Position numbers and translations under genes: made by a program
Part shown: positions 15,202 to 46,462 of the stretch, one piece after another
Layout: every line of letters starts with the position of its first letter
Position numbering within the stretch: position 1 is the first letter of the stretch
The notes under the pieces: model-generated
Databases searched by the model: none
The model's input: the letters and a program-made list of their open reading frames with translations, nothing else
Told to the model about the DNA's origin: nothing
Source of the DNA: a virus
UHGV virus genome: UHGV-1266211
DNA length: 51,046 nucleotides
Reading direction: 5' to 3' (one strand)

Positions 15202-15852
15202 ATGAGCGACAACCAGTTAGCACCTTGTTGGGAATTTCAGCCTTACCTTGCTGAAAGCAATGTTCGTCAGTTGTTAGCGGAAATTGCTAATGTACTCGAG
15301 CAATTGTACTACCACAAACACACACTGGACAGTAACTGGTCCGAAGGTGTAAGGGCTTATGATTGGGTCAGAAATCATTTGATTCAAAGTGAAGGGACAC
15401 TGCCGGGTCTGGAAATGGTTTCGAAGGGACTGGATTATGTGGTTGCGTTAAATAAAGTGCCGCTGCAGTTCTCCAAAGATTGCATTAATAACCCGAAGAA
15501 GAAGCATCGCCTTCTTCGAAATAGGGTGGAGCATGAGCAACTTTCATTGTTCGGTGAAACTGAAGCCGAGCAAGATATTACATGGCGGATCATCGCCGAA
15601 CCATTTTTATCCGATGAAGAAGATGGCGAGCTGGAATCAACATTGCCTCGCTGGGAAGTGGCTTTAGTTGGGTTTAACGCATATGGTGCCCAGATCAGTA
15701 TGGTTTCACACCAATCTACTGCTTCAGCGCCGCTTATGTCTCTTGATACCAACACTCTTCCGGATGAAGCTGAGATTGGCAAAGCCTCTCTTCGCCGCCG
15801 TAAAAAAGATCAAGATTTGGATGTGAGCAGTAATGGAACATCAAGTGAATGA
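15202..15852 (+). CDS. Unknown acidic protein, upstream partner of the HTH-ImmA fusion
   Basis: 216 aa, no recognisable motif; 20-bp overlap with the downstream gene. Confidence 0.6.
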   Translation: MSDNQLAPCWEFQPYLAESNVRQLLAEIANVLEQLYYHKHTLDSNWSEGVRAYDWVRNHLIQSEGTLPGLEMVSKGLDYVVALNKVPLQFSKDCINNPKKKHRLLRNRVEHEQLSLFGETEAEQDITWRIIAEPFLSDEEDGELESTLPRWEVALVGFNAYGAQISMVSHQSTASAPLMSLDTNTLPDEAEIGKASLRRRKKDQDLDVSSNGTSSE

Positions 15853-16936: not shown

Positions 16937-16953
16937 CTCAAAGCTTGTAATAA

Positions 16954-16978
16954 ACCCGCTATATGCGGGTTTTTTCTT
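16954..16978 (+). terminator. Rho-independent terminator
   Basis: acccgc-tatat-gcgggt plus T-run. Confidence 0.65.
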
Positions 16979-17180
16979 TCTGGTAGCGCGCTGCGGTAAC
17001 GCGGTGCCACCGCCGTTCGCTGAAGCGCTGGTGCGTGCTAATTTGCCGGAACTATGCCAATCGAAACAAATAGCGGCTTAGAGTCTGAGTTTCAGGGCAG
17101 GACGTAACAAATCCTGCTACTTCAATGACGTAGATTTAAACTTGATATAATTGGGCTCCAATCGACAAAGGAGCTATAAA

Positions 17181-17417
17181 ATGCATCACTATATATTTCC
17201 ACGCAATAACGGCATAACACTGATTAAAACTGAGGAATTTATTCCTCAAGGCTCAATTTACGATATAGATGGTGGAGACCATTTGTGTATGCATGTGACG
17301 CTTAAAGATGGTACTTACGGGTATCTTCTACCTGTAGGAACCGCCTACAATCATCAATGGGTCATTGGACAAATAAACGCTGTTCGCCCAAATCCACTGG
17401 CATTTGATATCAACTAG
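17181..17417 (+). CDS. Hypothetical small protein
   Basis: AAGGAG RBS then ATG 17181; 78 aa. Confidence 0.4.
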   Translation: MHHYIFPRNNGITLIKTEEFIPQGSIYDIDGGDHLCMHVTLKDGTYGYLLPVGTAYNHQWVIGQINAVRPNPLAFDIN

Positions 17418-17449
17418 CCAGATATTGAGATGAATATTTGAAAACTACA

Positions 17450-17472
17450 AAACCGCTTCGGCGGTTTTTCTT
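17450..17472 (+). terminator. Rho-independent terminator
   Basis: accgc-ttcg-gcggt plus T5. Confidence 0.6.
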
Positions 17473-18122: not shown

Positions 18123-18722
18123 ATGGCGCACGAACTACAACTCATTAAGCAATCATCAGGAATCCTGATCCCCGCTACGCCGGAGACCAGCGATATTCTG
18201 CAATCAAAAATCAAACTCGGCTCCGTACTGGTGGCTGAGTTCCGGCAGGTACGCAACCCGGCCTTTCACCGTCGTTTCTTCGCGTTACTCAATCTCGGTT
18301 TCGAATACTGGGAACCCACCGGCGGGGCGATCTCCTCCAACGAGCGCAAACTGGTAACCGGCTACGCCAAATTCCTTGCCTCATTCGCGGGAAGTGAAGC
18401 TGCACTCCTGGATGCAGCTGAGCAATATCTGGAGCGTATCGCTGATAAGCGCGCCGGTAGCATTAGCATCTGCAAATCCTATGATGCTTATCGTGCATGG
18501 GTGATCATCGAGTCTGGTCACTACGACGCCATTCAGCTTCCCGACGGCACCCTTCGCAAACACCCCCGCAGCATTGCCTTCGCCAACATGGACGAAACCG
18601 AGTTCCAGCAGCTGTACAAAGCCGCGCTCGATGTTCTGTGGCGCTGGGTATTGTCCCGGGCATTCAAAGACCAGCGTGAAGCGGAAAACGCCGCCTCGCA
18701 GCTCATGAGCTTTGCGGGGTGA
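18123..18722 (+). CDS. YbcN/DUF1367-like nin-region protein (tentative)
   Basis: 199 aa; position upstream of YbcO-like and rusA mirrors DLP12 ybcN-ninE-ybcO-rusA. Confidence 0.5.
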   Translation: MAHELQLIKQSSGILIPATPETSDILQSKIKLGSVLVAEFRQVRNPAFHRRFFALLNLGFEYWEPTGGAISSNERKLVTGYAKFLASFAGSEAALLDAAEQYLERIADKRAGSISICKSYDAYRAWVIIESGHYDAIQLPDGTLRKHPRSIAFANMDETEFQQLYKAALDVLWRWVLSRAFKDQREAENAASQLMSFAG

Positions 18723-24535: not shown

Positions 24536-26103
24536 ATTACAAAGCCGTCTGGAAACCTTTGCCGGGATCGCAATCGCTCTCCCTGAGTTGCCCGTGTAAC
24601 GAAATCCTCTACGAAGGTACGCGAGGCCCCGGTAAAACCGCCGCGCAACTGGCGCGCTTTCGTCGCCTGGTTGGTCTGGGCTATGGCTCGTTCTGGCGTG
24701 GCGTCATTTTCGATACCGAGTATAAAAACCTCACCGACATCATTACCCAGTCAAAGCGTATGTATCGCCTGTTTAATGACGGTGCACGCTATCTGGCGTC
24801 AGCATCTGAATTGCGCTGGGTATGGCCGACTGGCGAAGAGTTGCTGTTCCGCTTTGGGAAGGAAGAGGGGGATTACTGGGATTACCACGGTCAGGAGTTC
24901 CCGTTCATCGGCTTTAACGAGCTGACAAAGCAGCAGTCTGCTGAGTTCTACGAAATGATGTTCTCCTGCCGGCGCTCATCGTTCCGGCCGGAGAACTACC
25001 CGCTGGCTAACGGCGGTCTGTTGAAGCCAATCCCGCTCGAAACATTCAGCACGACCAACCCATTCGGCATCGGCCACACCTGGGTGAAGAAACGCTTCAT
25101 CGAGCCAGCGCCCCGCGGCACCATCATTCGTGAAACGCAGCAGGTGTTTAACCCGCAAACTGAGCGCGAAGAGGATGTGACGCTGACGCGCGTGGCTATT
25201 CACGGCTCGTTCAAAGAGAACCCGTATCTGGATCCCCAGTACATCGCAACGCTGATGGCCATCAAAGACCCGAACCGCCGCAAAGCTTGGGTAGAGGGCT
25301 CCTGGGATGTCACCAGCGGTGGGCGCTTTGACCACCTGTGGAATGCATCGCTGCACGTCATTAAGCCGTTCCGCATCCCGGATAGCTGGACGGTTGACCG
25401 TTCCCATGACTGGGGTGAGTCGAAGCCGTTCTCTAACCTCTGGTGGGCGCGAGCCGACGGTACTGCCGCAGAACTGCCTGATGGTCGCCAGTTCTGCCCG
25501 CCTGCCGGGTCGCTGATCCTGATTGGCGAGTGGTATGGCTGTCCACCTGACGAGCTGAACAAAGGGCTCAATATGAGCTCGACAAACGTCGCCAAGGGTG
25601 TGGCCTGGATTGATAAGCGGCTGATGGGCGAAGAGCTGCCTGAACCTGAAGAGATAAAACTCAATGGGATAACTCAGGGGCAACTGAACATCATGCCCGG
25701 TATCTGCAAAAAGGTTGTGCCCGGACCTGCTGACGGGGCTATCTACAACACCGGTGATGACGAATTATCTATTGCCCAGAAAATGGAATCCCAGGGCGTT
25801 AAATGGGTGCCATCCAACAAGAAGCCGGGTTCACGCGTGAACGGCGCGGCACTGTTTGCTGACATGCTGGAGGCCGTCATTGAGGGCAAGAAGCTGGAAT
25901 CAGGTATGCCAGAGAAACCAGCATTCTACGTGTTTGACTACTGCCGGGGCTGGATTAGCCGTGTTCCGGTTCTCGTTCGCGACAGTAAGAACCCTGACGA
26001 TGTAGACACACAGCAGGAAGATCACGATTGGGATGGCACGCGCTATGCCGTCCTACATTCACCGCCGAAGAAAGTCGGCAAAGTCACCAGCCTGAGGCTC
26101 TAA
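24532..26103 (+). CDS. Terminase large subunit
   Basis: Walker-A-like EGTRGPGKT near N-terminus; size and position. Confidence 0.75.
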   Translation: MNYKAVWKPLPGSQSLSLSCPCNEILYEGTRGPGKTAAQLARFRRLVGLGYGSFWRGVIFDTEYKNLTDIITQSKRMYRLFNDGARYLASASELRWVWPTGEELLFRFGKEEGDYWDYHGQEFPFIGFNELTKQQSAEFYEMMFSCRRSSFRPENYPLANGGLLKPIPLETFSTTNPFGIGHTWVKKRFIEPAPRGTIIRETQQVFNPQTEREEDVTLTRVAIHGSFKENPYLDPQYIATLMAIKDPNRRKAWVEGSWDVTSGGRFDHLWNASLHVIKPFRIPDSWTVDRSHDWGESKPFSNLWWARADGTAAELPDGRQFCPPAGSLILIGEWYGCPPDELNKGLNMSSTNVAKGVAWIDKRLMGEELPEPEEIKLNGITQGQLNIMPGICKKVVPGPADGAIYNTGDDELSIAQKMESQGVKWVPSNKKPGSRVNGAALFADMLEAVIEGKKLESGMPEKPAFYVFDYCRGWISRVPVLVRDSKNPDDVDTQQEDHDWDGTRYAVLHSPPKKVGKVTSLRL

Positions 26104-26107
26104 ACCC

Positions 26108-27511
26108 ATGCCTGATATTTCAACCCCCAATCTGGACTATGGGAACATGGTGCAGGCGTGGGACATCAACGACGCCCTGATGGGCGGCACGCTCTATATG
26201 CGACAACTGGGCGAGGCATATCTCCCGCGCTGGCCGAAAGAAGACAAAGAGGACTATAAAAAACGCCTCTCTGTGGCCACGCTTTTGCCCGCCTACGAAG
26301 AGACCATCAACCAGAACGTTGGCCGCGTATTCGCTGAGCCGATCCAACTGGGCGAGAACGTCCCGGATGCGCTGCGCGAGTTCTCGAAGAACGTTGACCT
26401 GGAAGGCAGTCGCCTCGATGTCTGGTCGCAGGCGTTCTTCAGCCTGGCAATGCAGTATGGCCTTTCGCACGCTCTGGTGGATTATCCCCGGGTGGACGCC
26501 GAAAAGGTGAAGACCAAGGCGGATGAAAAGGCTATCGGCGCGCGGCCGTACGTCACCATGCTAAATCCCCGTCAGGTGATCGGCTGGAAGTCAAAGATAA
26601 CCGGCGGCAAGGTGGTGCTCACCGAACTGCGCATCAAAGAGGTGGTAGTCGAAGACGGCGATGATTTCGGGCAAACAAAGGTCGAGCAGATTCGACTGCT
26701 GACGCCCGGGCAGGTGCAGATTTACCGCAAGGCCACTGGTGCCGACGGCCAGGCGAACTGGACGCTGCACGAGGAATGGCAAACATCCCGCAGGGATATT
26801 ACCCTGGTTACGCTCTACACCAAGCGCACTGGGTTTATGTGCGGTTCTCCGCCGCTGTTGAACATGGCGCTGTTGAATGTGAAGCACTGGCAGAGCCAGA
26901 GCGAGCAGGACAACATTCTGCACGTCGCGCGCGTCCCTCTGCTCACGGTATTCGGGCTAGAGGATGGGCAGGAACTGGTAATTGGCTCTTCGTCTGCAAC
27001 TCAGTTCTCCGATCGACAGAAACAGGGATTGGAATATGTCGAGCATACTGGAACCTCAATTAGTGCCGGTAAAGAGTCGCTAACCGACCTGGTGGAGCAG
27101 ATGCGCCAGGCAGGCGCGAAACTGCTGCGCACTGACAACACCTCAACCAAGTCTGTTGACCAGACCTCAGAAGAGAAGATGCAGGAGCAGTCACCGCTCT
27201 ACACCATGGCAACCAGCCTAGAGGATGCGATCGACAATATCCTGCAGATTATGGCTGAGTACATCGGTGAATCCGAAGGTGGTAACGTCGATGTCCGCAC
27301 CGAGCTGGATGTCGAGTCGAAAGAGTTCAATCCTCCTGCTGCACTGGCCATTCAGTCGCTACGTCAGGGCGGTGACCTTCGCCGCATAGATGCGATTAAA
27401 GCGCTGCAGAAGCTTAACCTGATTGATGCAGACGCAGACCCAGAAAAGGTCCTGGACGAGTTATTGGCTGAATCCTCCTCGCTGGATACCAGAACGATAG
27501 GCGAGGTGTGA
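26108..27511 (+). CDS. Portal protein (putative)
   Basis: 467 aa between terminase and head-morphogenesis protein. Confidence 0.6.
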   Translation: MPDISTPNLDYGNMVQAWDINDALMGGTLYMRQLGEAYLPRWPKEDKEDYKKRLSVATLLPAYEETINQNVGRVFAEPIQLGENVPDALREFSKNVDLEGSRLDVWSQAFFSLAMQYGLSHALVDYPRVDAEKVKTKADEKAIGARPYVTMLNPRQVIGWKSKITGGKVVLTELRIKEVVVEDGDDFGQTKVEQIRLLTPGQVQIYRKATGADGQANWTLHEEWQTSRRDITLVTLYTKRTGFMCGSPPLLNMALLNVKHWQSQSEQDNILHVARVPLLTVFGLEDGQELVIGSSSATQFSDRQKQGLEYVEHTGTSISAGKESLTDLVEQMRQAGAKLLRTDNTSTKSVDQTSEEKMQEQSPLYTMATSLEDAIDNILQIMAEYIGESEGGNVDVRTELDVESKEFNPPAALAIQSLRQGGDLRRIDAIKALQKLNLIDADADPEKVLDELLAESSSLDTRTIGEV

Positions 27512-33843: not shown

Positions 33844-34776
33844 ATGACATTCGCAATCCCTAACGGCTCGCGTGTTAACGTGGCCAAGGCCTATCAGGCT
33901 CCCATCACCTTTACCGCTGCCTCTAACGCTACTGAATGCGAACTGACTGTTGCATCTGCCGCTGGCATCCTGGCGGGCGACGTAGTGCAGGTGAGCTCCG
34001 GCTGGCTAAAACTCGATAATATGGTGCTGCGCGTTAAATCCGTAGCCGGTACCAAAATCGTGCTGGATTCGTTCGATACCTCTGACACCACCAAATTCCC
34101 GGCAGGCACTGGCGCGGGCACGCTGCGTAAAATCGACACGTGGATCACGATGCCGCAGGTGATGACCCTCTCCACAGAGGGTGGTGACCAGCAGACCATC
34201 AGCGTGCAGTTCCTTGAAGACGATAAGGCCCGTACCATCCCGACCTTCAAAAACGCCGTGGTGCAGGTCTACACCTTCGCGCACGATCCGCTGCTGGCAA
34301 TTTACAAGCGTCTGAGTGAACTTGACGAATCCAGCGACACCACTGCTGTGTGGTTCCATAACCCGCGCGGCAAAGCGGACCGTTATTACTCTGCCAAAGT
34401 GTCTTTCCAGAAGGTGCCTAAGACCGAAATCAACGCCGTGGAAAGCAACGAAGCGCGCATGAACTTCGAATCGGATATGCAGATTTACCCGATCGCCGAT
34501 TCATCCGTTACGCCGCTGGCGTTCCTGACTGATCTGCCATCAACCAAAGCAGTTAGTGTTGGAGATGCGCTCGATTTAGCCGTCGTTATGCAAGGCGGCT
34601 CAGCCCCTTACACCTACGTGTGGAAGAAAGGAAGCTCCGCAATTCCGGGCAAAACCGCCTCGACGTTCAACATTCCATCTGTGGCATCCGGTGATGCTGG
34701 CTCTTACACCTGCGAAGTCACTGACGCGGCGGGCAAAACTATCACCTCTGCTGCTTGCACCGTCACGGTCAGCTAA
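33844..34776 (+). CDS. Major tail protein with C-terminal Ig-like domain
   Basis: 310 aa; C-terminal ...YTYVWKKGSS...GSYTCEVTDAAG... Ig-like pattern. Confidence 0.75.
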   Translation: MTFAIPNGSRVNVAKAYQAPITFTAASNATECELTVASAAGILAGDVVQVSSGWLKLDNMVLRVKSVAGTKIVLDSFDTSDTTKFPAGTGAGTLRKIDTWITMPQVMTLSTEGGDQQTISVQFLEDDKARTIPTFKNAVVQVYTFAHDPLLAIYKRLSELDESSDTTAVWFHNPRGKADRYYSAKVSFQKVPKTEINAVESNEARMNFESDMQIYPIADSSVTPLAFLTDLPSTKAVSVGDALDLAVVMQGGSAPYTYVWKKGSSAIPGKTASTFNIPSVASGDAGSYTCEVTDAAGKTITSAACTVTVS

Positions 34777-35180: not shown

Positions 35181-35485
35181 GGCAGGTCGCCGCAGCATTG
35201 TATACGCCGGGACCGACGCTCGCGGAGCTGAGCGCTTTTGGTTTGACGCCTGAGGACGTGGAGGAAGAGGTGGGGATCCTGCCCTCGGTGTGGAGGTCCT
35301 TCACCATCTTCTCTTCCCTGGCGACCCAGTGGCGAGTCGGCGCGAGCGGGGCGACCGGCCTTGATTACAACGTTCTCCCCTGGATGTTCGAGTTACACGG
35401 GGTTGAGGATGCGGCGGCCTGCATGGCTGACCTTCAAATTATGGAAAGCGAGGCTCTCAAGGTAATGCATAAGGAGACGAAATAA
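35177..35485 (+). CDS. T extension of the G-T frameshift product
   Basis: -1 frame open from slippery site; ends with ATGA overlap at the tape measure start. Confidence 0.6.
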   Translation: MRQVAAALYTPGPTLAELSAFGLTPEDVEEEVGILPSVWRSFTIFSSLATQWRVGASGATGLDYNVLPWMFELHGVEDAAACMADLQIMESEALKVMHKETK

Positions 35486-38400
35486 TGACAGACCAGATCG
35501 CCTCGATTACTTTGCGGGCCGATGTTTCTGACCTGAAAACAGCCAGCAACGAACTGGATAAACTCGGCCAGGCGGCGGCCGGTGCTGTAGATAAAGCGGA
35601 TGATTTAAATAGCGTGTTCCGCGCTGGGGCTGAATCTGCGAAGCAAGGCAGCGAAGGACTCAAGGAGCAGCAGAACGCGCTCAAAGGGCTGCTGGAGAAT
35701 ATCGACCCGGTTACCAAGGCCTTAAACCGCCTGGATGAGCAGCAAGAATCGCTGCGGAAATTCCAGGCCAAAGGTTTCCTGGATACCGATACCTTTCAGG
35801 CATACAACAAAATCCTGGATGACACCCGCCTCAAGCTGACCGACACCGGAGAAGCCGCGGCGCGTGCTCAGGCCGAATTAGCCGCTACCCAGGCGGCAGA
35901 GAAGCAGTCCGCAGCGTTAAAGAACCTTCTTGGATCCATCGACCCGACTATCCGCGCGTTCAATTCGTTGGATGAACAGCACGCACAGCTGGTGGAACAT
36001 TTCGAAGCTGGGCGCATTAACGGTGCTCAGTTCGAGCACTTCAACACAATCCTTAACCAGACGCGTGAGCGCCTCTCTGGTGTCGCTGACGTACTACCAG
36101 AGGCGCTATCCCGGCAGGAAGCTGCTGCCCGGCGCGCTGGAATCTCCGTTGGTCAGTACAGCGCAGCAATGCGCACGCTTCCGGCGCAATTCACCGATAT
36201 CGCCACGCAGCTGGCTGGCGGTCAGTCGCCGTTCCTGATTCTGCTGCAACAGGGCGGGCAGATTAAAGACCAGTTCGGCTCGGTTCAGGGGGCGCTGTCC
36301 GGCGTCGGCGAATACATCCGCAGCATGGCTGGGATGATTAACCCTACCACAATCGCACTTGGTGGGCTGATTGGCACGATCGGCCTGCTGGCTGCCGCAG
36401 CGTATAACTCCTCGGAGCAATTTGAGCAGGTGGCACGCTCTGTCATCATGATGGGTGGGGCTGGCTTCTCCTCAATGCAGCAGCTCAACCAGGCCGCTGA
36501 GGAAGTGGCTGGCAAGACGAATACATCGATTAGCTCCACCGTCGATACGCTGGTTACGTTGAACGATACTGGCAAATATACCGCAAGCCAGATGAAGCAG
36601 GTCGCAACGACCATCACCCTCATGGGTAAGGCCGGAAATGATACCAAAGCGGCAATAAGCGACTTCGGAAAGATTGTCAGCGATCCGGTTAAAGGGCTTG
36701 CCAGCCTCAATGAACAATATGGTTTCGTTGATGAAGCCATGATCAAGCACATTATCCAGCTACGTAAGCAGAAGGGTGAGCAGGCGGCTGTTACCGAAGC
36801 TATTGAGCTGTTTGCAGGCGTCATGGCAAAGCGCGCAGAGGAGACCAACAAAGCGACCGATAATATCGGTCAAACGTGGGAAAACCTTAAAAAGAGCGCT
36901 TCTGACACCTTTGGCGATATAGGTATTACCGTGCGCGCATGGGGAAACCAGATCATTGATATTTTCGAACTGGTTAAATCCTCGATCAAAGACTTGTTCC
37001 TCAATATCACCTCTCTGGACGCCAAGTTCACCAGCACCATCGCTGGCTGGGCAGACAAAATCCCGGGTGGCGGTGCGCTGGCTAATTTCCTCGGCATGGA
37101 CGTTGAGGCAATGAAAAAGGCTGGAGCGGAGGCGGACAAAGAGATTGAGGCGAACAAAAAACGCTATAACGAGCTTTGGAAGCGCGTCACTGCGCCTAAC
37201 GCACAGGCAAACTATGAGGCTGAAGCGCGAGGGTCTAACGTAAAAGGTGATGGAGGAACAAGTCGAGAATCAAGAGACGCAGTCTCGAAGCTTGCACAAG
37301 ACTCAGCCAAAAAGACCAAAGAGGCAAAAGCCACGCTGGATGCTGGCGATCGCACTCTTGAGAACTACCGCGCCCAGGCCAGAACGTTAACTGAAACACT
37401 CGAAACGTTGCGCAAGACTGGGGAGACTCAGGTCAGATATACCGAGTTCAGCAAACAGCAATCCCATTTTGCCGAGCTGGACGAGGCTGCTAAGACCCGC
37501 GCGCTGACCGCACAGGAGAAATCTCTTCTATCGAACCGAGAGGCCATCCTCAACGCCGCCAAAGTTGTGGATCAGAAAAATAAGGAAGTCGAGGCCCAGC
37601 AGAAGATTAACGGCCTGGCGCAGCAGGCAAATAAGTATGTTACGCAGATGACTGAAAAGTCTGAGGCATTGCGTAGCGGGGCTGGGTTAAGTAGTCGCAT
37701 GGCCCAGCGAATGACCGAAGAGGCGCAGCTTCGGCAGGGCTGGCTAAATGGCGGTGGTAATCTAGAGGATGCTGGCTACGAGAAAGAGCTGGCAGCTCTT
37801 CGTAACTACTACGCCGAAGAGGATAAGCTACGGGGTGACTGGAAAGCAGGGGCAGTTAGTGGCTGGAATGAATATCTTGAGGCCGCCACGAATACCTATG
37901 ACGCCGTGAAGAACGTCGCCAGCTCCACGCTGACCGGCTTGAGCGACATGCTGACTGAGCTGATGATCACTGGCAAAGCATCAGTTAAAGAATTCGGTAA
38001 ATCCATGCTCAAGATGATCCTGGATGTTACGAACCGCCTCATGGTTGCCTACGCAGTGCAGGCCGCAATGGGATGGGTAAACGGAGGGGCAGGAGGTGGC
38101 AACACACCCGGTGGAGCATACGCGAACGCTGCTGCAGGCGTAACGTTCAACGCTAAAGGCGGAGTCTATGAATCGCCGGGCCTAAGCAAGTATGTGAATG
38201 GCGTCTACGATTCTCCTCAGTACTTCACGTTCCAGGGGGCATCTAAGTTTGCGAAAGGGGGGGTCTTTGGAGAGGCAGGGCCGGAAGCTATTATGCCGTT
38301 AGCTAAAGATTCAGCAGGGCGGTTGGGTGTACGCGCCCAAGGAGGTGGAAGTATTGCTCCTGTAATTAATACCGTCATTAATGTTGAGGCTAATGGTAAT

Positions 38401-38538
38401 GTATCAACCAGCACATCGTCGGATGGTGATGCAATGGCGCGTGCTTTAGCCAAGCAGATCAATGATCAGGCAAAAATGATAGTGCTCAATGAGCTTAAGC
38501 CTTCTGGCGCTATCTACAACTACATTAACAAGCGATAA
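35485..38538 (+). CDS. Tail tape measure protein
   Basis: 1017 aa, coiled-coil N-terminus, Gly-rich hydrophobic middle, position after G/G-T. Confidence 0.9.
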   Translation: MTDQIASITLRADVSDLKTASNELDKLGQAAAGAVDKADDLNSVFRAGAESAKQGSEGLKEQQNALKGLLENIDPVTKALNRLDEQQESLRKFQAKGFLDTDTFQAYNKILDDTRLKLTDTGEAAARAQAELAATQAAEKQSAALKNLLGSIDPTIRAFNSLDEQHAQLVEHFEAGRINGAQFEHFNTILNQTRERLSGVADVLPEALSRQEAAARRAGISVGQYSAAMRTLPAQFTDIATQLAGGQSPFLILLQQGGQIKDQFGSVQGALSGVGEYIRSMAGMINPTTIALGGLIGTIGLLAAAAYNSSEQFEQVARSVIMMGGAGFSSMQQLNQAAEEVAGKTNTSISSTVDTLVTLNDTGKYTASQMKQVATTITLMGKAGNDTKAAISDFGKIVSDPVKGLASLNEQYGFVDEAMIKHIIQLRKQKGEQAAVTEAIELFAGVMAKRAEETNKATDNIGQTWENLKKSASDTFGDIGITVRAWGNQIIDIFELVKSSIKDLFLNITSLDAKFTSTIAGWADKIPGGGALANFLGMDVEAMKKAGAEADKEIEANKKRYNELWKRVTAPNAQANYEAEARGSNVKGDGGTSRESRDAVSKLAQDSAKKTKEAKATLDAGDRTLENYRAQARTLTETLETLRKTGETQVRYTEFSKQQSHFAELDEAAKTRALTAQEKSLLSNREAILNAAKVVDQKNKEVEAQQKINGLAQQANKYVTQMTEKSEALRSGAGLSSRMAQRMTEEAQLRQGWLNGGGNLEDAGYEKELAALRNYYAEEDKLRGDWKAGAVSGWNEYLEAATNTYDAVKNVASSTLTGLSDMLTELMITGKASVKEFGKSMLKMILDVTNRLMVAYAVQAAMGWVNGGAGGGNTPGGAYANAAAGVTFNAKGGVYESPGLSKYVNGVYDSPQYFTFQGASKFAKGGVFGEAGPEAIMPLAKDSAGRLGVRAQGGGSIAPVINTVINVEANGNVSTSTSSDGDAMARALAKQINDQAKMIVLNELKPSGAIYNYINKR

Positions 38539-38551
38539 TTGAGAGGTTTTA

Positions 38552-38764
38552 ATGGACTTAAAAGTTGACGGCATCAATGTTTATGATGATGAGGAAGGAA
38601 AGATTGTTTCAGTAACCGTGCATGTAATGAGGGATGAATATCGAAGTCATGCAACGACATACGTTGAGCTCCCGTATTCTGATGCGCTGACAATCCATGA
38701 AATTCACACGCAGGCGCTCAATGCCGCCAAAGAGAAACTTAAGCTGATCGCAAGCAGCATCTGA
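38552..38764 (+). CDS. Hypothetical small protein (moron)
   Basis: 70 aa inserted between tape measure and M. Confidence 0.45.
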   Translation: MDLKVDGINVYDDEEGKIVSVTVHVMRDEYRSHATTYVELPYSDALTIHEIHTQALNAAKEKLKLIASSI

Positions 38765-38819
38765 TCGTTACATTCTGACATCCCCTGGTTAATATGTAAA
38801 AAACCATATTGTTCAGGGG

Positions 38820-39248
38820 ATGATAATGAAATTACTCTTCATTAGCGTTGTTGCGTTGTGTTTGGCCGGTTGTGCTACTGAAGCCGTTTTACCAAGCCAG
38901 GCGAAACAAGCACCCAAAGAACGATTGCTCAAGTTCCAGTCGCCAGGTGTAGGGGAACAGGCGAAGCTAATTGTGGTGCGCGATAAAGGATTTCTTGGAA
39001 GCGGTTGTTTCGTCGGCGTGTACCTAAACCAAGAGAAGGCAGCTATTTTGGATCCAGGTGAGAAGGCCGAATTTTACCTCAAACCGGGAGAATGGAATGT
39101 TGCTTTAATGGGGGAAGGAAAGATGTGCATCGCTGACAAGATACCTGCTGGAAGAGACTTTGTGCTCACTGCGAACACTACAAAAGCCGTCCGTTTATTT
39201 GCAGATCCGAGCGGAAACACTGACGTCAAAACACTGCCGAACCAATAG
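38820..39248 (+). CDS. Lipoprotein (moron in tail cluster)
   Basis: Signal peptide plus lipobox LAGC. Confidence 0.65.
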   Translation: MIMKLLFISVVALCLAGCATEAVLPSQAKQAPKERLLKFQSPGVGEQAKLIVVRDKGFLGSGCFVGVYLNQEKAAILDPGEKAEFYLKPGEWNVALMGEGKMCIADKIPAGRDFVLTANTTKAVRLFADPSGNTDVKTLPNQ

Positions 39249-39267
39249 CCCCCAATACCTAATAACC

Positions 39268-39291
39268 AGCCTCGTATCCGCGGGGCTTTTT
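39268..39291 (+). terminator. Terminator hairpin (copy 3 of recurring motif)
   Basis: agcctcg-tatccg-cggggct plus T5. Confidence 0.55.
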
Positions 39292-39709
39292 GTTGTTGCA
39301 GGTGGGCGGGGTGGTTAAAAAGTGAGCACCACATTCAAGGGGGCCGAAATATTACAGCAATCTTTGTTGTCGTGCATTCCAACCAAGTCATGTATTTTGT
39401 GCAAAAAGTGCTATTTATGGCCTTCTTGAACTCTTCAACCGGATCATAGGCCCAGCCTATCTCCTGAGAACGTGACAATAGTTTACTATTACCTGAGGGG
39501 TAACTTCTGCGAAAGTGTGGCTAACTTGCAAAGTGGCCGCGATAAAATTCGTCGAACATGCATCTATCTTCAGACATAGGCCCATTGCTCAAATATGACG
39601 AATGGTATTAAATTGTCCTCAACCACTTGAAGTGGTCATTAATTCTTTGGATGTGTTTACATCCTACAATTTGAGAAAGCACTGCCAAACGTGCATGAGG
39701 GTGATAATC

Positions 39710-39889
39710 ATGGGTCACGCATTAAAAAAGGCAGATCGCTTGTACATTCCGCCTCGTGACAAATCCACGGTGGCGAAACCTCGTGCAGCGATCAGCGAAG
39801 CATGTTCACACACTGGTCAAGTTAAAAATGCCTTTGAGTTTGGGTTTGCTCGTTATGAGAAGGCGATGGAAGAACTTTCAAAGGTCTGA
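39710..39889 (+). CDS. Small protein upstream of Doc (candidate antitoxin)
   Basis: 59-aa ORF ending 10 bp before the Doc start; no recognisable Phd motif. Confidence 0.3.
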   Translation: MGHALKKADRLYIPPRDKSTVAKPRAAISEACSHTGQVKNAFEFGFARYEKAMEELSKV

Positions 39890-39899
39890 GTAGAAACGG

Positions 39900-40397
39900 A
39901 TGACGATAGAGTATGTTGAAGGAGTCAATTATCTTTCCATTGACGATATCGTTTACATCAATAGGTCTCTGATCGAGACTCAGACGCCAAATGAGCCAAT
40001 AGGCGTACTGAATCCGAACAACCTCAGTTCTTCACAGTCCAGACCAAGTACGATTCGATATTATGAGCAGACAGACGATATGTTTCGCCTGTCTGCTGTT
40101 CTTATTGAAAGCCTGATCCAGAATCATCCATTCGCAAATGCAAACAAACGCACCGCTATGATGGCTGGATACGTATTCCTGTTGCTGAATGGATATGAGC
40201 TTACAGCACCCAGTGATGAGGTCGTAACCATCGCAGAGGGTTTGGCTCGTAAGGATTACTCAGTGGAAGACCTGGAAAATTGGTTATGCCACTGGTCCCG
40301 AGAGTACGATTCCAGAACGTTATGTGCAACAGGCGGAAATTCGCTTCAGGCTCTCGTGGCGACTTCACACTACATCCGAATCATATCGAATAACTGA
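39900..40397 (+). CDS. Fic/Doc-family toxin (death-on-curing-like)
   Basis: HPFANANKRTAMMAGYVFLLLNGY matches the Fic/Doc HxFx(D/N)(A/G)NKR motif. Confidence 0.8.
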   Translation: MTIEYVEGVNYLSIDDIVYINRSLIETQTPNEPIGVLNPNNLSSSQSRPSTIRYYEQTDDMFRLSAVLIESLIQNHPFANANKRTAMMAGYVFLLLNGYELTAPSDEVVTIAEGLARKDYSVEDLENWLCHWSREYDSRTLCATGGNSLQALVATSHYIRIISNN

Positions 40398-40443
40398 ATC
40401 CGCTAAGAGGCGGTTTTTTTGCCGACCAATACTGAATTATATA

Positions 40444-40465
40444 ACCCGCTTCGGCGGGTTTTTTT
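40444..40465 (+). terminator. Strong rho-independent terminator 12 bp upstream of tail gene M
   Basis: acccgc-ttcg-gcgggt plus T7; weaker hairpin at 40400-40420. Confidence 0.65.
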
Positions 40466-40476
40466 ATGGAGCAAAT

Positions 40477-40827
40477 ATGGCCGTTGAAACATACAACTGG
40501 CGATCTCAGCTCGGGGCTGGCGCGATTGAATATAGTCAAACGGTGCGTGCTGCGCAGTTTGGCGATGGCTACGAACAGGTGGCCGAGAACGGCATCAACT
40601 CCACGGCGATCCAGGTGCCAATGAAACACGTTGGCAGTGAGTCTGAGGTAAACGCAGTGCGCGACTTCCTCCTGGCTCATACCGTTAAAGCTTTTATCAT
40701 CACGCCGCCCGGCGAAGCGAAGGGGCTTTATCGGGTAGTCGCCGATTCCGTACGGAAAAATCAGATCAGCAGCAAGTTTGCTGAGCTGACGTTCACCATC
40801 AAACGGGCTTACGGAGTGTATGCATAA
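40477..40827 (+). CDS. Minor tail protein M
   Basis: ...VRAAQFGDGYEQ... similar to lambda M FGDGYSQ region. Confidence 0.8.
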   Translation: MAVETYNWRSQLGAGAIEYSQTVRAAQFGDGYEQVAENGINSTAIQVPMKHVGSESEVNAVRDFLLAHTVKAFIITPPGEAKGLYRVVADSVRKNQISSKFAELTFTIKRAYGVYA

Positions 40828-41597
40828 TGGCATTAGTCGATCAGGCGGCGATGCTGGCACCGGGTGGCAGAGTTCGCCTGGTTGAAGTTGACGCCTCAGA
40901 GTTCAGTGGCGGTATTCACCGTTTCCACTACGCACCTTTCCCCCATACACCGGAAGAGATCGACGCTGCCAATGGTGATGAAGAAAAGCTCGGACCAAAG
41001 CCAATCGTATTCGGTGGCAATACCTACGATTTTTGGCCGTTTCAGGTAGCAGGCCTGGAGCTTTCAACAGACCAGGCCGCAGAGCCGACACTCAGCGTTT
41101 CCAACCTCGACGGTCATATCACGGCGCTATGCCTGCAATTTAAAGACATGGTTAATGCCAAAGTGAGCATTATCGACACCTATTCGGTTTACCTCGATGC
41201 CGTGAATTACCCTGGTGGGGTGAACCCGACCGCAGACCCGTCGATGTTCACGCTTCAGACCTTCTGGCTTGACACGAAAACCTCCGAAGACGACGAAGTG
41301 GTTTCATGGTCACTCAGTAGCCCCGCAGACTTGCAGGGGCTTGTTATCCCAACCAGACAAATCACCTCGCTCTGTGAATGGGCGCTACGCGGGCAGTACC
41401 GGAGCGGCGATGGATGCACCTATAACGGTACGGCATATTTCGACGCGAAGGGGAACCAGGTTTCAGATCCTGCCCTTGATGTATGTGGTGGATGCTTCAG
41501 TGACTGCCGTAAACGATTTGGCGCCGGCCTGGCAGATCCTAACGCGGCAATTCTCGACTTTGGCGGCTTTCCGGCAACCGTTCTCTTCACCCGATAA
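40827..41597 (+). CDS. Minor tail protein L
   Basis: ...PTLSVSNLDGHITAL ... YLDAVNYPGG ... collinear with lambda L. Confidence 0.85.
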   Translation: MALVDQAAMLAPGGRVRLVEVDASEFSGGIHRFHYAPFPHTPEEIDAANGDEEKLGPKPIVFGGNTYDFWPFQVAGLELSTDQAAEPTLSVSNLDGHITALCLQFKDMVNAKVSIIDTYSVYLDAVNYPGGVNPTADPSMFTLQTFWLDTKTSEDDEVVSWSLSSPADLQGLVIPTRQITSLCEWALRGQYRSGDGCTYNGTAYFDAKGNQVSDPALDVCGGCFSDCRKRFGAGLADPNAAILDFGGFPATVLFTR

Positions 41598-41609
41598 CCG
41601 GACATAGCA

Positions 41610-42341
41610 ATGAATAAAACCATATTGGCAGCTATCCGTGCTCATGCGCTGGAGGAATCCCCGCGCGAGAGCTGCGGATTCGTTATTCAGTCTGGCCGTC
41701 GCCAGCGCTATATTCCTGTACCAAACACTCACGAAAATCCAACAGAGCATTTCCGCATCGATGGCGAGCATTGGGCGAACGCCGAAGATATCGGGACGAT
41801 TGTGCGCGTCATCCATTCCCATCCTGGCGATGGAGCAAGGCCGATTCCATCCGATCTGGACCGCCAGCAATGCAACAACTCCGGCGTGGTCTGGGGTATT
41901 TACGCGCCGGATAGCGACGAATACGCTGAGATAATGCCGGAGGCGGTACCCCTTATCGGGCGTCCGTTTATTCTGGGCTCAAATGACTGCTGGGGGCTGG
42001 TAATGGATTGGCATGCCACCCAAGGCGTGAAGCTGAACGATTTTCGCGTCGATTACCCGTGGTGGGAAAGCCAGTACCCGGACAATCTCTATTTCGAAAA
42101 CTGGGAGCGGGAAGGGTTTGTCGAATGCGATCCGGCACCAGGCTGTATGGTCATCATGCAGGTTGAATCCAGTAAGTGGAACCACGCGGGGATCATTACC
42201 GAGGAAGGTGAACTGCTTCACCATCTGTATGGGCAGCCATCCTGCATCACGCCGTATGCGCGTGGTTATTTCAAAGACAGGACGATGATCTGCGTCCGTC
42301 ACAAGGACCTGCCACAGGAGATAAAGCCATGGCGCGTTTAA
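41610..42341 (+). CDS. Tail assembly protein K (JAB/MPN + NlpC/P60)
   Basis: HSHPGD (JAMM-like) and later Cys/His pattern; position. Confidence 0.85.
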   Translation: MNKTILAAIRAHALEESPRESCGFVIQSGRRQRYIPVPNTHENPTEHFRIDGEHWANAEDIGTIVRVIHSHPGDGARPIPSDLDRQQCNNSGVVWGIYAPDSDEYAEIMPEAVPLIGRPFILGSNDCWGLVMDWHATQGVKLNDFRVDYPWWESQYPDNLYFENWEREGFVECDPAPGCMVIMQVESSKWNHAGIITEEGELLHHLYGQPSCITPYARGYFKDRTMICVRHKDLPQEIKPWRV

Positions 42342-42928
42342 CCACTATTCGTCTGTATGGCGCACTGGGCGCCCGGTTCGGGCGCGTGCATAAACTGGCA
42401 GTGCAGACATCTGCCGAAGCGGTCAAAGCCCTGTGTATCAACTTCGACGGACTGGAAGACTATCTAATGAATGCAAAAAAAAATGGCATGACCTTCGCGG
42501 TGTTTCGCGGTAAGCGCAACATAGGCGTGCAGGACTTCCAGGAGCTGGCAGGCGATAGCGATATTCGCATAGCGCCGGTTATGGAGGGGGCGAAGAAGGC
42601 GGGTATGTTCCAGACCATCTTGGGGGCAGTGATGGTGGTCGCCGGTATTATCGTCGGCGTGGCGACCGGCTGGACCGGTGTAGGTCTCACCTTTGGTGCC
42701 GGACTTATCATGTCGGGCGCGTCAATGATGGCTGGTGGAATTTACCAGATGCTTTCGCCCCAGCCCAAAGGACTACAGGGGCGAGACGATCCTGACAATA
42801 AACCATCATATGCCTTCGGTGGCTCGGTGAATACCCTTGCGATGGGTAACCCGGTCGCGCTTCTTTATGGTGAGCGCGAGATTGGCGGCGCCATCATCAG
42901 GGCCGGCATAGTCGCAGAAGACATCTAA
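42329..42928 (+). CDS. Tail assembly protein I
   Basis: N-terminal ubiquitin-like part, Gly-rich hydrophobic C-terminus; position. Confidence 0.8.
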   Translation: MARLTTIRLYGALGARFGRVHKLAVQTSAEAVKALCINFDGLEDYLMNAKKNGMTFAVFRGKRNIGVQDFQELAGDSDIRIAPVMEGAKKAGMFQTILGAVMVVAGIIVGVATGWTGVGLTFGAGLIMSGASMMAGGIYQMLSPQPKGLQGRDDPDNKPSYAFGGSVNTLAMGNPVALLYGEREIGGAIIRAGIVAEDI

Positions 42929-42982: not shown

Positions 42983-45900
42983 ATGGAAGCGATCACTGGT
43001 GCAAAGGGTGGCAGCCAGAAGCAGCACACACCTGTAGAACAGCCCGATTCGGCTCAGTCAATGGCGCGCTGCCGCATGCTGCTGGCGCTCGGGGAGGGGG
43101 AGTTTGCTGGTGGCCTGGATGCGACCCGGATATTCCTGGACGGTACGCCGTTGGGAAACCCCGACGGAACGATGAATTTTGAAAATGTGTCATGGGATTT
43201 CCGGCCTGGCACACAGACCCAGACACCAATACCGGGATTCCCTGCAGTCGAGAATGAAACTACGGTTGGGGTATCGCTGACAAAGGCCACACCATGGACC
43301 CGCGCACTGAGTAACACCCAGATTGACGCGGTGCTGGTTCGTATTGGCATCCCTGGGTTACAGCAGCAGGAAAACGATGGGGATATTGTCGGCACTACGG
43401 TTCAGTACCATATTGATCTGGCGGTGGACGGTGGCGCTTACTCGACAGTCATGACGAAAACCGTCACAGAGAAGCTCAGCTCGCTCTATGAACTAACCCA
43501 CCGTATTAATCTTCCCAAAGCCAGCACTGGCTGGCAAATTCGAGTGGTGCGTGACACCGATGACAGCACCAGCCAGATGCTGCAGAACAAAACGCAGGTG
43601 CAAGCGATTACTGAAGTGATCGATGCTCGCCTGCGATATCCACACACAGCGCTGCTGTACGTGTCCTTTAACGCAAAGTCATTCAACAACATCCCTAAGA
43701 TTTCCTGCATGCCGAAGGGGCGCATCATCCGAATCCCTTCGAACTATGATCCAATAGCGCGGACTTATAGCGGAACATGGGACGGGACGTTTAAATGGGG
43801 CTGGACGAATAACCCGGCGTGGATTTGGTTCGATGTTCTGACTGAGCCGCGCTTCGGCCTTGGGCGCCGCGTGACGCCAGAAATGCTCGATAAGTGGGAG
43901 CTCTATCGCATCGCCCAGCGCTGCGACCAGAAGGTACCCGACGGGAAAGGCGGAAGCGGTACCGAGCCACGCTTCATGTTTGACGTTTACATCCAGTCCC
44001 AGGCTGATGCCTGGCAGGTGATTAAAGATATTGCCGCGGGCTTCAACGGAATGACTTTCTGGGGCAACAACATGTTCAATGTTGTCTCTGACATGCCGGC
44101 GGACACTACGAAGTTGCAGATCCTCACTCGCGCATCAGTGGTGGGTAAGCCGGTGTACTCGAGTGGCAGTGAGAAAAACCGATTCTCCAGCGCGCTGATT
44201 AACTTCAGCGATCCGGATAACCACTACCAGGACCGCACCACGGCAGTGATGTTTCCGGAACTGGTAAGGCAGTTCAAGTTTAAGCAGACACAAATCACTG
44301 CGATCGGTTGTACGCGTGAGAGCGAGGCGCAGCGGCGTGGCGGGTGGGCGGTGTATTCCAACTCCCTTGACCGCATTATCACGCTTCAGACTGGACTTGA
44401 TGGCTTTGTATTCGTGCCGGGCACCGTATTTGCGTTTGCAGATGAACGCCTGTCAGGGCGCGTTTACGGCGGGCGTATCACCGGGTATAACGCTGGTCTT
44501 AAGGCCGTGACCATTGACCGGGGCACCAGTGCGGTGGCGGGCGATACGCTGATGATTCGCACCCAGGGCGGTACCGTTGAAAGCCGGGTGATACAGGCCG
44601 TAAATGGCACGCAGCTGATCCTGTCCACGCCGTTCACGGCGGCGCCATTACCTAATGCCGTATTCGTCATTGATGCTGGTCAGCTGCGCCTGCAGTATTT
44701 CCGGGTAACGAACCTAAAATTTGATGATGAGGAAAACACCTTCACCATTACCGGTGCGGAGTATAACGCGTCGAAATACGACGCCGTTGATAACAATGCT
44801 CGCCTCGATACTCCTCCGATAAGCCTGATTCCGACCGGGCTAGTTAACCAGCCGACCAACATCGTGGTATCGAGCTATGATGCGGTTCGCCAGGGGCAAC
44901 GCGTGGCCACGCTAACCGCCTCGTGGGATGCGCCAATTGATAAAGACGGCAAACTGCAGTCGGACGTAATAGCGTACCGGGCACAGTGGAAGCGCGGAAA
45001 TAACGAATGGGTAAACGTGCCTGAAACCGGGTTACGAAATATCGAAGTGCCTGGCATTTTCGAGGGCGATTACCTTGTGCGCGTCCGTGCGATTAACTCT
45101 GGGGGAGCGTCCAGCCTTTGGGCCACGTCTGCGTTGACCCATCTTACCGGCCGCACCGGTGAAGTGCCCAAACCTGTCGGACTAACAGCAACAGAGGATG
45201 TTGTATTTGGGATCAACATTACATGGGGTTTCCCCGCAGATACCGCCGACACCCTGAGCACGGAACTGCAATACAGCGCTTCAGTCGATGGGGCAAATCC
45301 AATGCTTTTGGCGTCGGTGCCGTATCCTCAGAAACTCTATCAGCAGATGGGGCTGAAGGCAGGGCAGGAATTCTGGTACCGGGCACGGCTGGTTGACCGC
45401 ATCGGGAATCAGAGCGACTGGACAGACTGGGTGCGCGGGCAGGCCAGCATCGATGTTTCCGATATCACCGATGCAATCCTGGAGGACATGAAAGGCTCCG
45501 ATACGTTCAAAGACCTGATCGAGAACGCGGTGGACAGCAATGAAAAAATTGCTGGCATGGCTGACGAAATTAAAAACCATGCCGACGAACTCGAGCAGCA
45601 GGCGAAAGACATCCTGGAGAACGCTGACGGGCTGGCTCAGGCCGAAGTGAAGATCGACGAGATTTCTGTGTCGATGGACGGCATGACGGGAGGAGTGAAG
45701 AACTCGGCAATCGCGATTATTCAGAATGGGCTGGCGCAGGTGGTAAGCCGTCGCTCGCAGACCGCCACGAACGCCGGGAACAGTGCCAGTATAGACAGAG
45801 TGGATACTACGATTGCCGATACCAGCCAGGCGGTCGCACGCGCGCTGGTCACACTGGATGCAGAAGCTGGTGGCAATATCTCTAACTCAACGGACCTGAC

Positions 45901-46462
45901 AGAAACTCTTGCTGATTTCACCCAGGCTTCGGCAACAAAAATCAACACTCTGACTGTTAAATCAGGCGAAAACAGTGCAGCGATAAACGTCAACGCACAG
46001 GCTATAGCAGATGTAAACGGTAACCTCAGCGCGATGTATAACATCAAGGTGGGGGTGTCCAGTAACGGGCAGTATTACGCTGCCGGGATGGGTATTGGGG
46101 TTCAAAATACACCCTCCGGCATGCAGTCACAGGTAATCTTCCTGGCAGACCGTTTCGCCGTGACTACTATGGTCGGCGGGACTGTAACACTGCCGTTCGT
46201 TATCCAGAATGGCCAGGCCATTATCAGGGATACAGTCATTGGCGACGGGACCATAAGCAATGCAAAAATTGGCAATTACATCCAGTCGAACAATTATGTT
46301 GCCGGCTCTGTTGGCTGGAAACTGGATAAGTCCGGGACGTTTGAGAACTACGGTTCGACAGCTGGGGAGGGAGCCATGAAGCAGACCAACCAGACAATCA
46401 GCGTCAAGGATGGCAACAACGTTCTGAGAGTGCAGGTTGGCCGATTAACGGGGGTGTTCTGA
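42983..46462 (+). CDS. Host specificity protein J (central tail fiber / tip)
   Basis: 1159 aa, position after I, fibronectin-like middle region. Confidence 0.9.
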   Translation: MEAITGAKGGSQKQHTPVEQPDSAQSMARCRMLLALGEGEFAGGLDATRIFLDGTPLGNPDGTMNFENVSWDFRPGTQTQTPIPGFPAVENETTVGVSLTKATPWTRALSNTQIDAVLVRIGIPGLQQQENDGDIVGTTVQYHIDLAVDGGAYSTVMTKTVTEKLSSLYELTHRINLPKASTGWQIRVVRDTDDSTSQMLQNKTQVQAITEVIDARLRYPHTALLYVSFNAKSFNNIPKISCMPKGRIIRIPSNYDPIARTYSGTWDGTFKWGWTNNPAWIWFDVLTEPRFGLGRRVTPEMLDKWELYRIAQRCDQKVPDGKGGSGTEPRFMFDVYIQSQADAWQVIKDIAAGFNGMTFWGNNMFNVVSDMPADTTKLQILTRASVVGKPVYSSGSEKNRFSSALINFSDPDNHYQDRTTAVMFPELVRQFKFKQTQITAIGCTRESEAQRRGGWAVYSNSLDRIITLQTGLDGFVFVPGTVFAFADERLSGRVYGGRITGYNAGLKAVTIDRGTSAVAGDTLMIRTQGGTVESRVIQAVNGTQLILSTPFTAAPLPNAVFVIDAGQLRLQYFRVTNLKFDDEENTFTITGAEYNASKYDAVDNNARLDTPPISLIPTGLVNQPTNIVVSSYDAVRQGQRVATLTASWDAPIDKDGKLQSDVIAYRAQWKRGNNEWVNVPETGLRNIEVPGIFEGDYLVRVRAINSGGASSLWATSALTHLTGRTGEVPKPVGLTATEDVVFGINITWGFPADTADTLSTELQYSASVDGANPMLLASVPYPQKLYQQMGLKAGQEFWYRARLVDRIGNQSDWTDWVRGQASIDVSDITDAILEDMKGSDTFKDLIENAVDSNEKIAGMADEIKNHADELEQQAKDILENADGLAQAEVKIDEISVSMDGMTGGVKNSAIAIIQNGLAQVVSRRSQTATNAGNSASIDRVDTTIADTSQAVARALVTLDAEAGGNISNSTDLTETLADFTQASATKINTLTVKSGENSAAINVNAQAIADVNGNLSAMYNIKVGVSSNGQYYAAGMGIGVQNTPSGMQSQVIFLADRFAVTTMVGGTVTLPFVIQNGQAIIRDTVIGDGTISNAKIGNYIQSNNYVAGSVGWKLDKSGTFENYGSTAGEGAMKQTNQTISVKDGNNVLRVQVGRLTGVF

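Follow-up and report, generated by a model that had tools for sequence, protein, structure and literature searches.

The closest described relatives of the module considered here are the Phd-Doc toxin-antitoxin systems of phage P1 and of the chromosomes of Salmonella and Enterococcus (PDB 3K33, 9VZC), whose toxins carry a motif of the form HXFX(D/N)(A/G)NKR (PMC13034048). Residues 52-73 of Phd, its final 22, are enough to bind and inhibit Salmonella Doc; they form a kinked helix that has a Gly at its centre and hydrophobic hot spots (PMC9207808). The Phd-C element alone, fused to SUMO, also neutralises a Doc, and single-domain antitoxins that only neutralise are documented (PMC10440598). On the phage side, morons such as HK97 gp15 and lambda lom and bor are AT-rich units between late genes, with their own terminator and a probable promoter, and vary among related phages (PMC3594210), while in the P2/P4 hotspots interchangeable cargo occupies a fixed position between conserved phage genes (PMC9122126). 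Here we analyze the virus genome UHGV-1266211 (51,046 nucleotides, one strand read 5' to 3', referred to as the window at its full length), in which positions 39,710-40,465 hold a 59-amino acid (aa) open reading frame (ORF), a Doc-family toxin gene and two terminators within a lambda-like tail cluster. We propose that these elements probably belong to a mobile moron cassette in the late (tail) operon, composed of a conserved non-coding leader, a promoter, a 59-aa antitoxin, the Doc toxin, and tandem terminators with a ribosome-binding site (RBS). Its parts and right-hand boundary are as follows.

39249-39709: ORF-free stretch of about 420-460 bp, non-coding
39312-39611, plus strand: conserved non-coding leader of ~300 bp, from an alignment of 42 distinct copies
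39312-39584, plus strand: upstream part of the leader, with the core TTTTGTGCAAAAAGTGCTATT (39394-39414) and the hairpin ATAGGC-CCA-GCCTAT (39446-39460)
39585-39611, plus strand: promoter-like site reading into the cargo, TTGCTC (39585-39590), 15 nt, and the extended -10 TGG-TATTAA (39603-39611)
39622-39636: first Doc-class inverted repeat, ACCACT-TGA-AGTGGT
39649-39664: second Doc-class inverted repeat, GGATGT-GTTT-ACATCC
39710-39889, plus strand: 59-aa ORF of PHROG 2208, putative minimal antitoxin
39900-40397, plus strand: Doc-family toxin gene, 165 aa, containing HPFANANKRTAMMAG
40400-40413, plus strand: first terminator-like hairpin, followed by a T-run
40443-40460, plus strand: second terminator-like hairpin, with a T-run ending at 40467 (terminator ACCCGCTTCGGCGGGTTTTTTT, 40444-40467)
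after the second terminator: ATGGAGCAAAT, the RBS serving gene M
40477-40827, plus strand: minor tail gene M (Pfam Phage_min_tail, 1.8e-19), the right boundary, outside the cassette

The 165-aa protein matches TIGR01550 DOC_P1 of NCBIfam (1.3e-41, 141.6 bits against a cut-off of 38.65), the Fic/DOC family PF02661 of Pfam (2e-12, 48.2 bits against a threshold of 24) and PHROG 577, 'Doc-like toxin' (4.4e-49). Its sequence also matches the solved chains of Enterococcus faecalis Doc (9vzc_A, 6e-15) and P1 Doc (3k33_A, 4e-7), with the catalytic segment aligned. The motif H76-P-F-A-N-A-N-K-R84 fits the Doc-type definition given above and not the HxFx(D/E)GNGRxxR motif of AMPylating Fic proteins; across 32 homologues H76, F78, N80, N82, K83 and R84 are invariant, and P77, A79 and A81 are conserved in at least 90%. 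By its sequence, the gene encodes a Doc-type toxin and not an AMPylating, Fic-type one, in line with the canonical Fic/Doc motif recognized in an earlier, sequence-only reading of this DNA. The Doc assignment itself is not new, as Salmonella enterica proteins 98-99% identical to it are already annotated as 'type II toxin-antitoxin system death-on-curing family toxin'; this near-identity suggests that the window is probably a lambdoid prophage of a Salmonella host. An AlphaFold2 (AF2) model of Doc alone, built from 32 close homologues, is helical and of low confidence (predicted local distance difference test score, pLDDT, of 52), and a Foldseek search with it returned nothing meaningful; the similarity to the solved Doc chains nevertheless implies the all-helical Fic/Doc fold. 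In Salmonella phage SW-37 (locus L001, CP051275.1, about 25546-26233) tblastn aligns 39 of the 59 residues of the small ORF, and Doc as three pieces, which points to frameshifts or sequencing errors in this unannotated record.

Compared with Phd-Doc, the locus has the same toxin family, the same motif, a small upstream gene and a short gap between the two genes. It differs in the length of the toxin (126 aa in P1, 165 aa in the window, with a C-terminal extension of ~35 residues) and above all in the partner, which is not a member of Phd/YefM, is not AbrB-like, lacks a folded DNA-binding domain and does not resemble Phd in sequence. The 59-aa ORF has a GAGG RBS 9 nt upstream, and its stop codon lies 10 nt before the Doc ATG. 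It is matched end to end by PHROG 2208 (1.4e-37), a family annotated as 'function unknown'. A profile search of 1.84 billion representatives retrieved only 33 clusters (at 50% identity), all of 38-95 aa and mostly of 47-69 aa, and the family profile revealed no fused domain and no link to other families in this protein library. The close family comprises 25 clusters of 55-84 aa, mostly 59 aa, with 75-100% identity, from Salmonella, Izhakiella, Providencia, Rosenbergiella and Enterobacter.

The association of this family with Doc extends well beyond lambdoid tail clusters. A homologue of the small ORF lies 3-22 nt upstream of Doc, in the same orientation, in at least six unrelated contexts and down to 37-48% identity of the small ORF: at tail sites of lambdoid phages, between the tail chaperone and tape measure genes of Providencia siphophage-like prophages, after hok in the nin region of E. 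coli lambdoid prophages, in a Serratia AlpA-type island, next to the integrase of Pseudomonas phages Sirocco and LPPA56, and on metagenomic contigs. The sequence-only reading had suggested the 59-aa ORF as a possible antitoxin and had named a lack of conservation of the small ORF with Doc as a finding that would speak against the module; the homology search strengthens its suggestion, since PHROG 2208 is a conserved family directly upstream of Doc, and Doc follows it in all close relatives examined and in three of the four very distant, metagenomic ones. Pairwise identities of the small ORF and of Doc are correlated as well (r = 0.91, 55 pairs). Two small co-oriented genes with a short gap, conserved as a pair across contexts, are what the generic definition of a type II toxin-antitoxin system describes.

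In the AF2 model of the 59-aa protein calculated from the family alignment, the first 33 residues lack regular structure and a helix spans residues 34-57 (block-mean pLDDT 77-85). Conservation within the family is highest in this C-terminal helix, QVKNAFxFGFxRYEKAMEELSKV; the helix is amphipathic and has a conserved mid-helix Gly45, while the disordered N-terminal half contains a conserved I-P-x-R-D-K motif. Based on the synteny and the predicted shape, we regard PHROG 2208 as very probably a minimal Doc antitoxin, outside the Phd family, which would work like Phd-C and is reduced to a disordered tail and one putatively neutralizing helix, with no DNA-binding domain. As in Phd-Doc, neutralization is expected to proceed through the C-terminal helix of the upstream protein. 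The same concept, a short helical element that neutralizes Doc alone, underlies the PanA(Phd-C):Doc pairs among the 'linear neutralisation' antitoxins of NetFlax (PMC10440598), and pairs with Panacea-domain antitoxins occur as alternative cargos of the same cassette (see below). Unlike in NetFlax PanA, the neutralizing element here appears to constitute the whole protein, with the disordered I-P-x-R-D-K segment ahead of it and no Panacea domain. Two classical assignments of the 59-aa ORF, as a Phd/YefM antitoxin or as an AbrB/MazE-type antitoxin, were ruled out by the absence of profile matches and of a folded N-terminal DNA-binding domain.

The second line of evidence concerns the DNA upstream of the pair. 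By megablast, positions 39264-40464 of the window are 93% identical to Salmonella phage SW-37, and only 39264-39611 match E. coli phage HK639 (NC_016158.1; 77% identity); over the ~300-bp leader itself the identity is 85% to SW-37 and 78% to HK639. In HK639 the leader lies at the same site, after the lipoprotein gene, and is followed by a 190-aa hypothetical protein and a YafO-family toxin. The sequence-only reading had described ~400 bp of non-coding DNA ahead of the 59-aa ORF; this DNA is indeed non-coding, but most of it is the conserved leader and not a spacer. The leader occurs once in the window and recurs in about 60 phage or prophage loci. Its invariant 21-mer TTTTGTGCAAAAAGTGCTATT is present in 49 IMG/VR contigs, and the full leader in four GTDB genomes (three Citrobacter, one Leclercia); a single scan with a leader 20-mer found 17 metagenome contigs, 10 of them with the full element and only with cargo classes already known. 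None of 5,426 complete E. coli genomes contains the leader. Its left end is sharp (..GGTTAAAAT). From one copy to another, neither the upstream flank nor the cargo that follows is related.

About seven cargo classes, mostly of two genes, follow the leader. The commonest is the 59-aa ORF with Doc; the others are a ~200-aa protein with a YafO toxin, three classes that combine a Panacea/SocA-domain antitoxin with a partner of 133-150 aa without assigned function, a pair of 113-aa and 241-aa proteins, and a 282-aa membrane protein. The cassettes also have a common 3' end, namely the terminator ACCCGCTTCGGCGGGTTTTTTT followed by ATGGAGnAAAT-ATG, which is the RBS of the next phage gene; the second terminator with TATGGAGnAAAT-ATG is shared by Doc, YafO and Panacea cassettes at both the H|M and the K|I sites. 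Insertions were found between tail genes H and M, between K and I (where the stop codon of K even comes from the leader), before the tape measure gene, between fibre genes and in the nin region; the K|I junction is empty in the window and filled in other phages. Since the leader accompanies its cargo to unrelated sites, it is, judging from these sequence comparisons, part of the mobile unit and not of the recipient locus. Own terminators, an atypical GC content and presence/absence polymorphism (YafO cargo at the same site in HK639) are the marks of a moron. The family differs from the HK97 and lambda morons in sharing a ~300-bp leader and a 3' terminator with RBS around interchangeable cargos at several sites. 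It also differs from the P2/P4 hotspots, which are flanked by phage core genes, in that the conserved flank moves with the cargo, and in that the cargos are toxin-antitoxin-like pairs and not recognized defence systems. The literature searched, on tail morons, HK639 and Doc in phage defence, contained no account of the cassette or of the shared leader.

Several observations on the sister cassettes may be useful for their annotation. In loci L006, L018 and L032 the gene behind the SocA/Panacea antitoxin, where a toxin would be expected, encodes a protein of 133-150 aa (for example MSTFQPYKKGTVLAPSGPCNHLHVICNDPVYYP...) without a Pfam match; in L031 there is a different, 140-aa Panacea partner with a weak NsnC-like PADLOC match (3.6e-07). 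The partners behind the SocA/Panacea antitoxins are, from their position and sequence, candidates for uncharacterized toxins. The Panacea-type antitoxins of these cassettes have no recognizable DNA-binding domain. In HK639, the coding sequence HK639_19, annotated as 'minor tail protein' (HK639 locus 5482-5889), starts upstream of the annotated cassette terminator and crosses it; comparison with the window suggests that the true start of its gene M is probably the ATG after TTTTTTTATGGAGAAAAT.

The leader's first ~270 bp are moderately conserved, with few indels and blocks of sharp conservation. A promoter-like geometry at the 3' end of the leader is kept in all cargo classes even though the letters differ (TTGCTC/T, 15-16 nt, TATTAA/TATAAA/TATATT): the Panacea classes have TTGCTT-16-TATAAA, and loci L019 and L080 have TTGCTC-16-TATATT. 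We infer that this 3' end is a sigma70-like promoter of the cargo. Downstream of it, the stems of the two inverted repeats at 39622-39664 are conserved in the Doc-class loci, while the loop of the first repeat varies; this region is presumed to be a 5' untranslated region (UTR) or an operator, and the repeats may act as a hairpin at the mRNA 5' end or as operator sites. On the minus strand of the Doc-specific 5' region (39688-39661) we also found a promoter-like TTGGCA-16-TAGGAT, which overlaps the palindrome GGATGTGTTTACATCC and is directed antisense into the leader.

A gene within the leader was considered and rejected. The minus-strand reading frame MSEDRCMFDE...IAVIFRPP resembles a protein but is interrupted by a conserved TAG in nearly all of the 42 variants (except L042 and the divergent L013 and L031) and by other stops at scattered positions in different variants, and tblastn with this pseudo-protein found no intact homologue in 50,697 phage records. 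There are stops in every frame and no 3-base periodicity, and ORFs of 10-19 aa on either strand are not conserved, as judged by eye in the alignment of variants. The leader was likewise rejected as a structured RNA: RNAalifold, run on 42 sequences for the plus strand and 24 for the minus strand, gave about -5 kcal/mol in both cases, folds of single sequences were no better than shuffled sequence (z-scores -0.9 and -0.7), and Rfam returned no leader match at E <= 1 for the window, nor at E <= 0.5 for six variants. Three hand-picked hairpins had 30 cells changed on both sides, against 6.8 in shuffles, a modest signal concentrated in one 6-bp stem. The leader is thus not a detectably structured RNA. 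Two weak Rfam matches in the window fall on the terminators (40380-40464).

The core of the leader also occurs by itself. An 18-25-nt portion is found alone in intergenic DNA of Pantoea, Erwinia, Photorhabdus, Buttiauxella and Dryocola, and the 18-mer has 42 matches in 596 Gb, 14 of them in Enterobacterales; the loci with a stand-alone core TTGTGCAAAAAGTGCTAT are L053, L054, L057, L073, L077, L084, L085, L088, L092 and L093. Because of this recurrence in Enterobacterales intergenic DNA, the core sequence suggests a candidate protein-binding site. The Pantoea and Erwinia copies are flanked by small regulator genes of the ymgA/ariR kind, beside TGTACA repeats resembling MlrA/BluR sites and near a gene for a BLUF-domain protein. 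We compared the core with sites for sigma54, CRP, Fis, IHF, LacI-type regulators and MlrA/BluR and with the extended -10 of sigmaS, and none of them fits; a full-text literature search for the motif returned nothing relevant. E. coli islands and ColE1-like plasmids contain partial matches too, but these are weak and uninformative.

Further features of the tail cluster and of the insert that holds the cassette are listed below.

33844-34776: tail tube gene of the lambda-like tail cluster
35485-38538: tape measure gene (H), with TMP_2 and Tape_meas_lam_C matches
38552-38764: 70-aa ORF, PHROG 2891, function unknown
38820-39248: gene for a 142-aa lipoprotein, PHROG 890
39268-39287: terminator of the lipoprotein gene
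40827-41597, 41610-42341, 42329-42928 and 42983-46462: lambda-like tail genes L, K, I and J, in this order

The insert between H and M spans 1.94 kb (38539-40476), and the GC content is 41-49% over 38300-40550 as opposed to 51-62% on either side. The AT-rich Doc insertion in a lambda-like tail cluster reported in the sequence-only reading is therefore real, but that reading omitted the two upstream ORFs of the insert. The insert thus stacks at least two morons, since the 70-aa ORF and the lipoprotein gene, which has a terminator of its own, are part of it as well. HK639 has a lipoprotein gene at the matching position. The tandem terminators of the Doc cassette (40400-40413 and 40443-40460) had been noted too, and the distance to gene M, given as 12 bp, differs trivially from the 9 nt that we count from the end of the second T-run. 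Elsewhere in the window, the nin-like region (15833-17471) encodes a 367-aa protein that, by eye only, has an XRE-type helix-turn-helix-like N-terminus and an ImmA/IrrE-type peptidase-like C-terminal half; next come an 88-aa ORF and a terminator (17451-17471) resembling that of the cassette. The window gene at 18123-18722 (MAHELQLIK...) is the gene found downstream of the nin-region leader cassettes in loci L034 and L047.

In order to relate these features to a possible function, we combined what was observed, i.e. the sequence features, the membership in the Doc family, the conserved gene pair whose members diverge together and the leader and terminator recurring around different cargos, with steps taken from knowledge of the families. 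In a lysogen, the cassette would be transcribed from its own promoter and stopped at its own terminators; during lytic growth, antiterminated late transcription would read through it, and the RBS at its 3' end would preserve the translation of gene M. Doc, as a kinase of the Fic fold, would phosphorylate EF-Tu and thereby arrest translation. The 59-aa protein would silence it by laying its C-terminal amphipathic helix (residues ~34-57, with Gly45) on Doc, mimicking the C-terminal 22-28 residues of Phd, which are enough for inhibition. A partner without a folded DNA-binding domain makes classical antitoxin autoregulation unlikely, and for the same reason transcriptional control would be exerted by the common leader and promoter of the cassette family. 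Once the labile, largely disordered antitoxin is no longer made, e.g. upon host shut-off by a superinfecting phage or upon loss of the prophage, free Doc could halt translation. The outcome might be abortive infection or stabilization of the prophage, the two roles suggested in the sequence-only reading, or neither.

Some results weigh against this interpretation. The 59-aa ORF has no match in Pfam, NCBIfam or PADLOC and no detectable homology to known antitoxins; its family profile finds nothing better than E = 0.9 in the PDB, and hhalign of the family against P1 Phd gives a probability of 0.3%, so that the sequence-only reading was correct in seeing no recognizable Phd motif. The AF2 model of the 59-aa protein is of moderate confidence (mean pLDDT 69). 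One distant small-ORF homologue, at locus L110, has no recognizable Doc in the 54 residues available downstream. The promoter is a consensus match only, with a short, 15-nt spacer, and was missed by a promoter scanner, which requires a spacer of 16-18 nt and a T at position 6. In PADLOC, neither Doc and its partner nor the other cargos had a significant match, only weak ones to PDC-S23 (Doc) and NsnC (one cargo toxin), and for this reason a defence role of the cassette is a conjecture.

The lack of homology to any antitoxin and of the DNA-binding domain usual in classical type II antitoxins, together with a conserved N-terminal I-P-x-R-D-K motif that has no counterpart in Phd, might also mean that the 59-aa protein is a co-factor, substrate adaptor or chaperone of Doc, or that Doc is a non-toxic kinase that modifies host or phage proteins. 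We consider this improbable, because the two genes match type II toxin-antitoxin pairs in their order, size, spacing and strict co-inheritance, the catalytic motif of Doc is intact in a family that is toxic wherever tested (PMC9207808, PMC10440598), and antitoxins restricted to neutralization have precedents (PMC10440598). Even less credit is given to the view that the module is decaying or silent selfish DNA in the tail operon, without a present function. The broken copies of both genes in SW-37 and the absence of the leader from the complete E. coli genomes would agree with it, but the window and dozens of loci carry both ORFs intact, the 32 homologues share an invariant catalytic motif, and the antitoxin candidate keeps its length and C-terminal helix across genera.

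For the leader, the alternatives concern its role more than its existence. It might be a mere recombination linker, i.e. a homology arm that serves with the shared 3' terminator for cargo swapping and has no regulatory or RNA function. At least seven unrelated cargos do lie between leader and terminator, at several phage sites; the search of the leader for RNA structure, ORFs and known motifs came up empty; and its conservation does not exceed that of the adjacent tail genes (76% against 88% identity in the comparison with HK639, 73% against 75% with L019). On the other hand, it moves with the cargo to H|M, K|I, the nin region, the position before the tape measure gene and that between fibre genes, its promoter geometry and conserved blocks persist despite sequence change and with few indels, and its core recurs alone in other Enterobacterales as if it were a binding site; we therefore find the linker possible, yet on balance rather unlikely. 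A functional RNA made from the leader, be it an antisense or small RNA or a long regulatory 5' UTR, acting on the cargo or in trans, would account for the minus-strand promoter-like sequence that points into the leader and for the two-sided changes in the 6-bp hairpin at 39446-39460. It has little to recommend it, given that neither strand has a consensus structure, folding energies resemble those of shuffled sequence, none of the seven variants matches Rfam, and the minus-strand promoter lies in Doc-specific sequence that the other cargo classes do not share. The most far-reaching proposal is that the leader is a portable protein-binding control region around the core TTTTGTGCAAAAAGTGCTAT, which places interchangeable toxin-antitoxin cargos under one host or phage signal, so that the cargos would be plug-in abortive-infection or exclusion modules of temperate phages in Enterobacterales, with PHROG 2208 as a new minimal class of Doc antitoxins; taken as a whole, we regard this proposal as speculative and doubtful. 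If true, it would explain how antitoxins without a DNA-binding domain are regulated.

The mobile moron cassette with a Doc toxin and its small partner, which we continue to prefer, has consequences for both toxin-antitoxin and phage biology. If confirmed, PHROG 2208 would represent a new class of antitoxins, with a natural 'neutralisation domain only' design, and would fix the annotation of orphan-looking Doc genes in prophages of E. coli, Salmonella, Serratia, Providencia and Pseudomonas. The leader is a defined DNA element whose regulator can be sought, and the frame shared by Doc, YafO and Panacea pairs points to a modular trade in toxin-antitoxin cargos among temperate phages.

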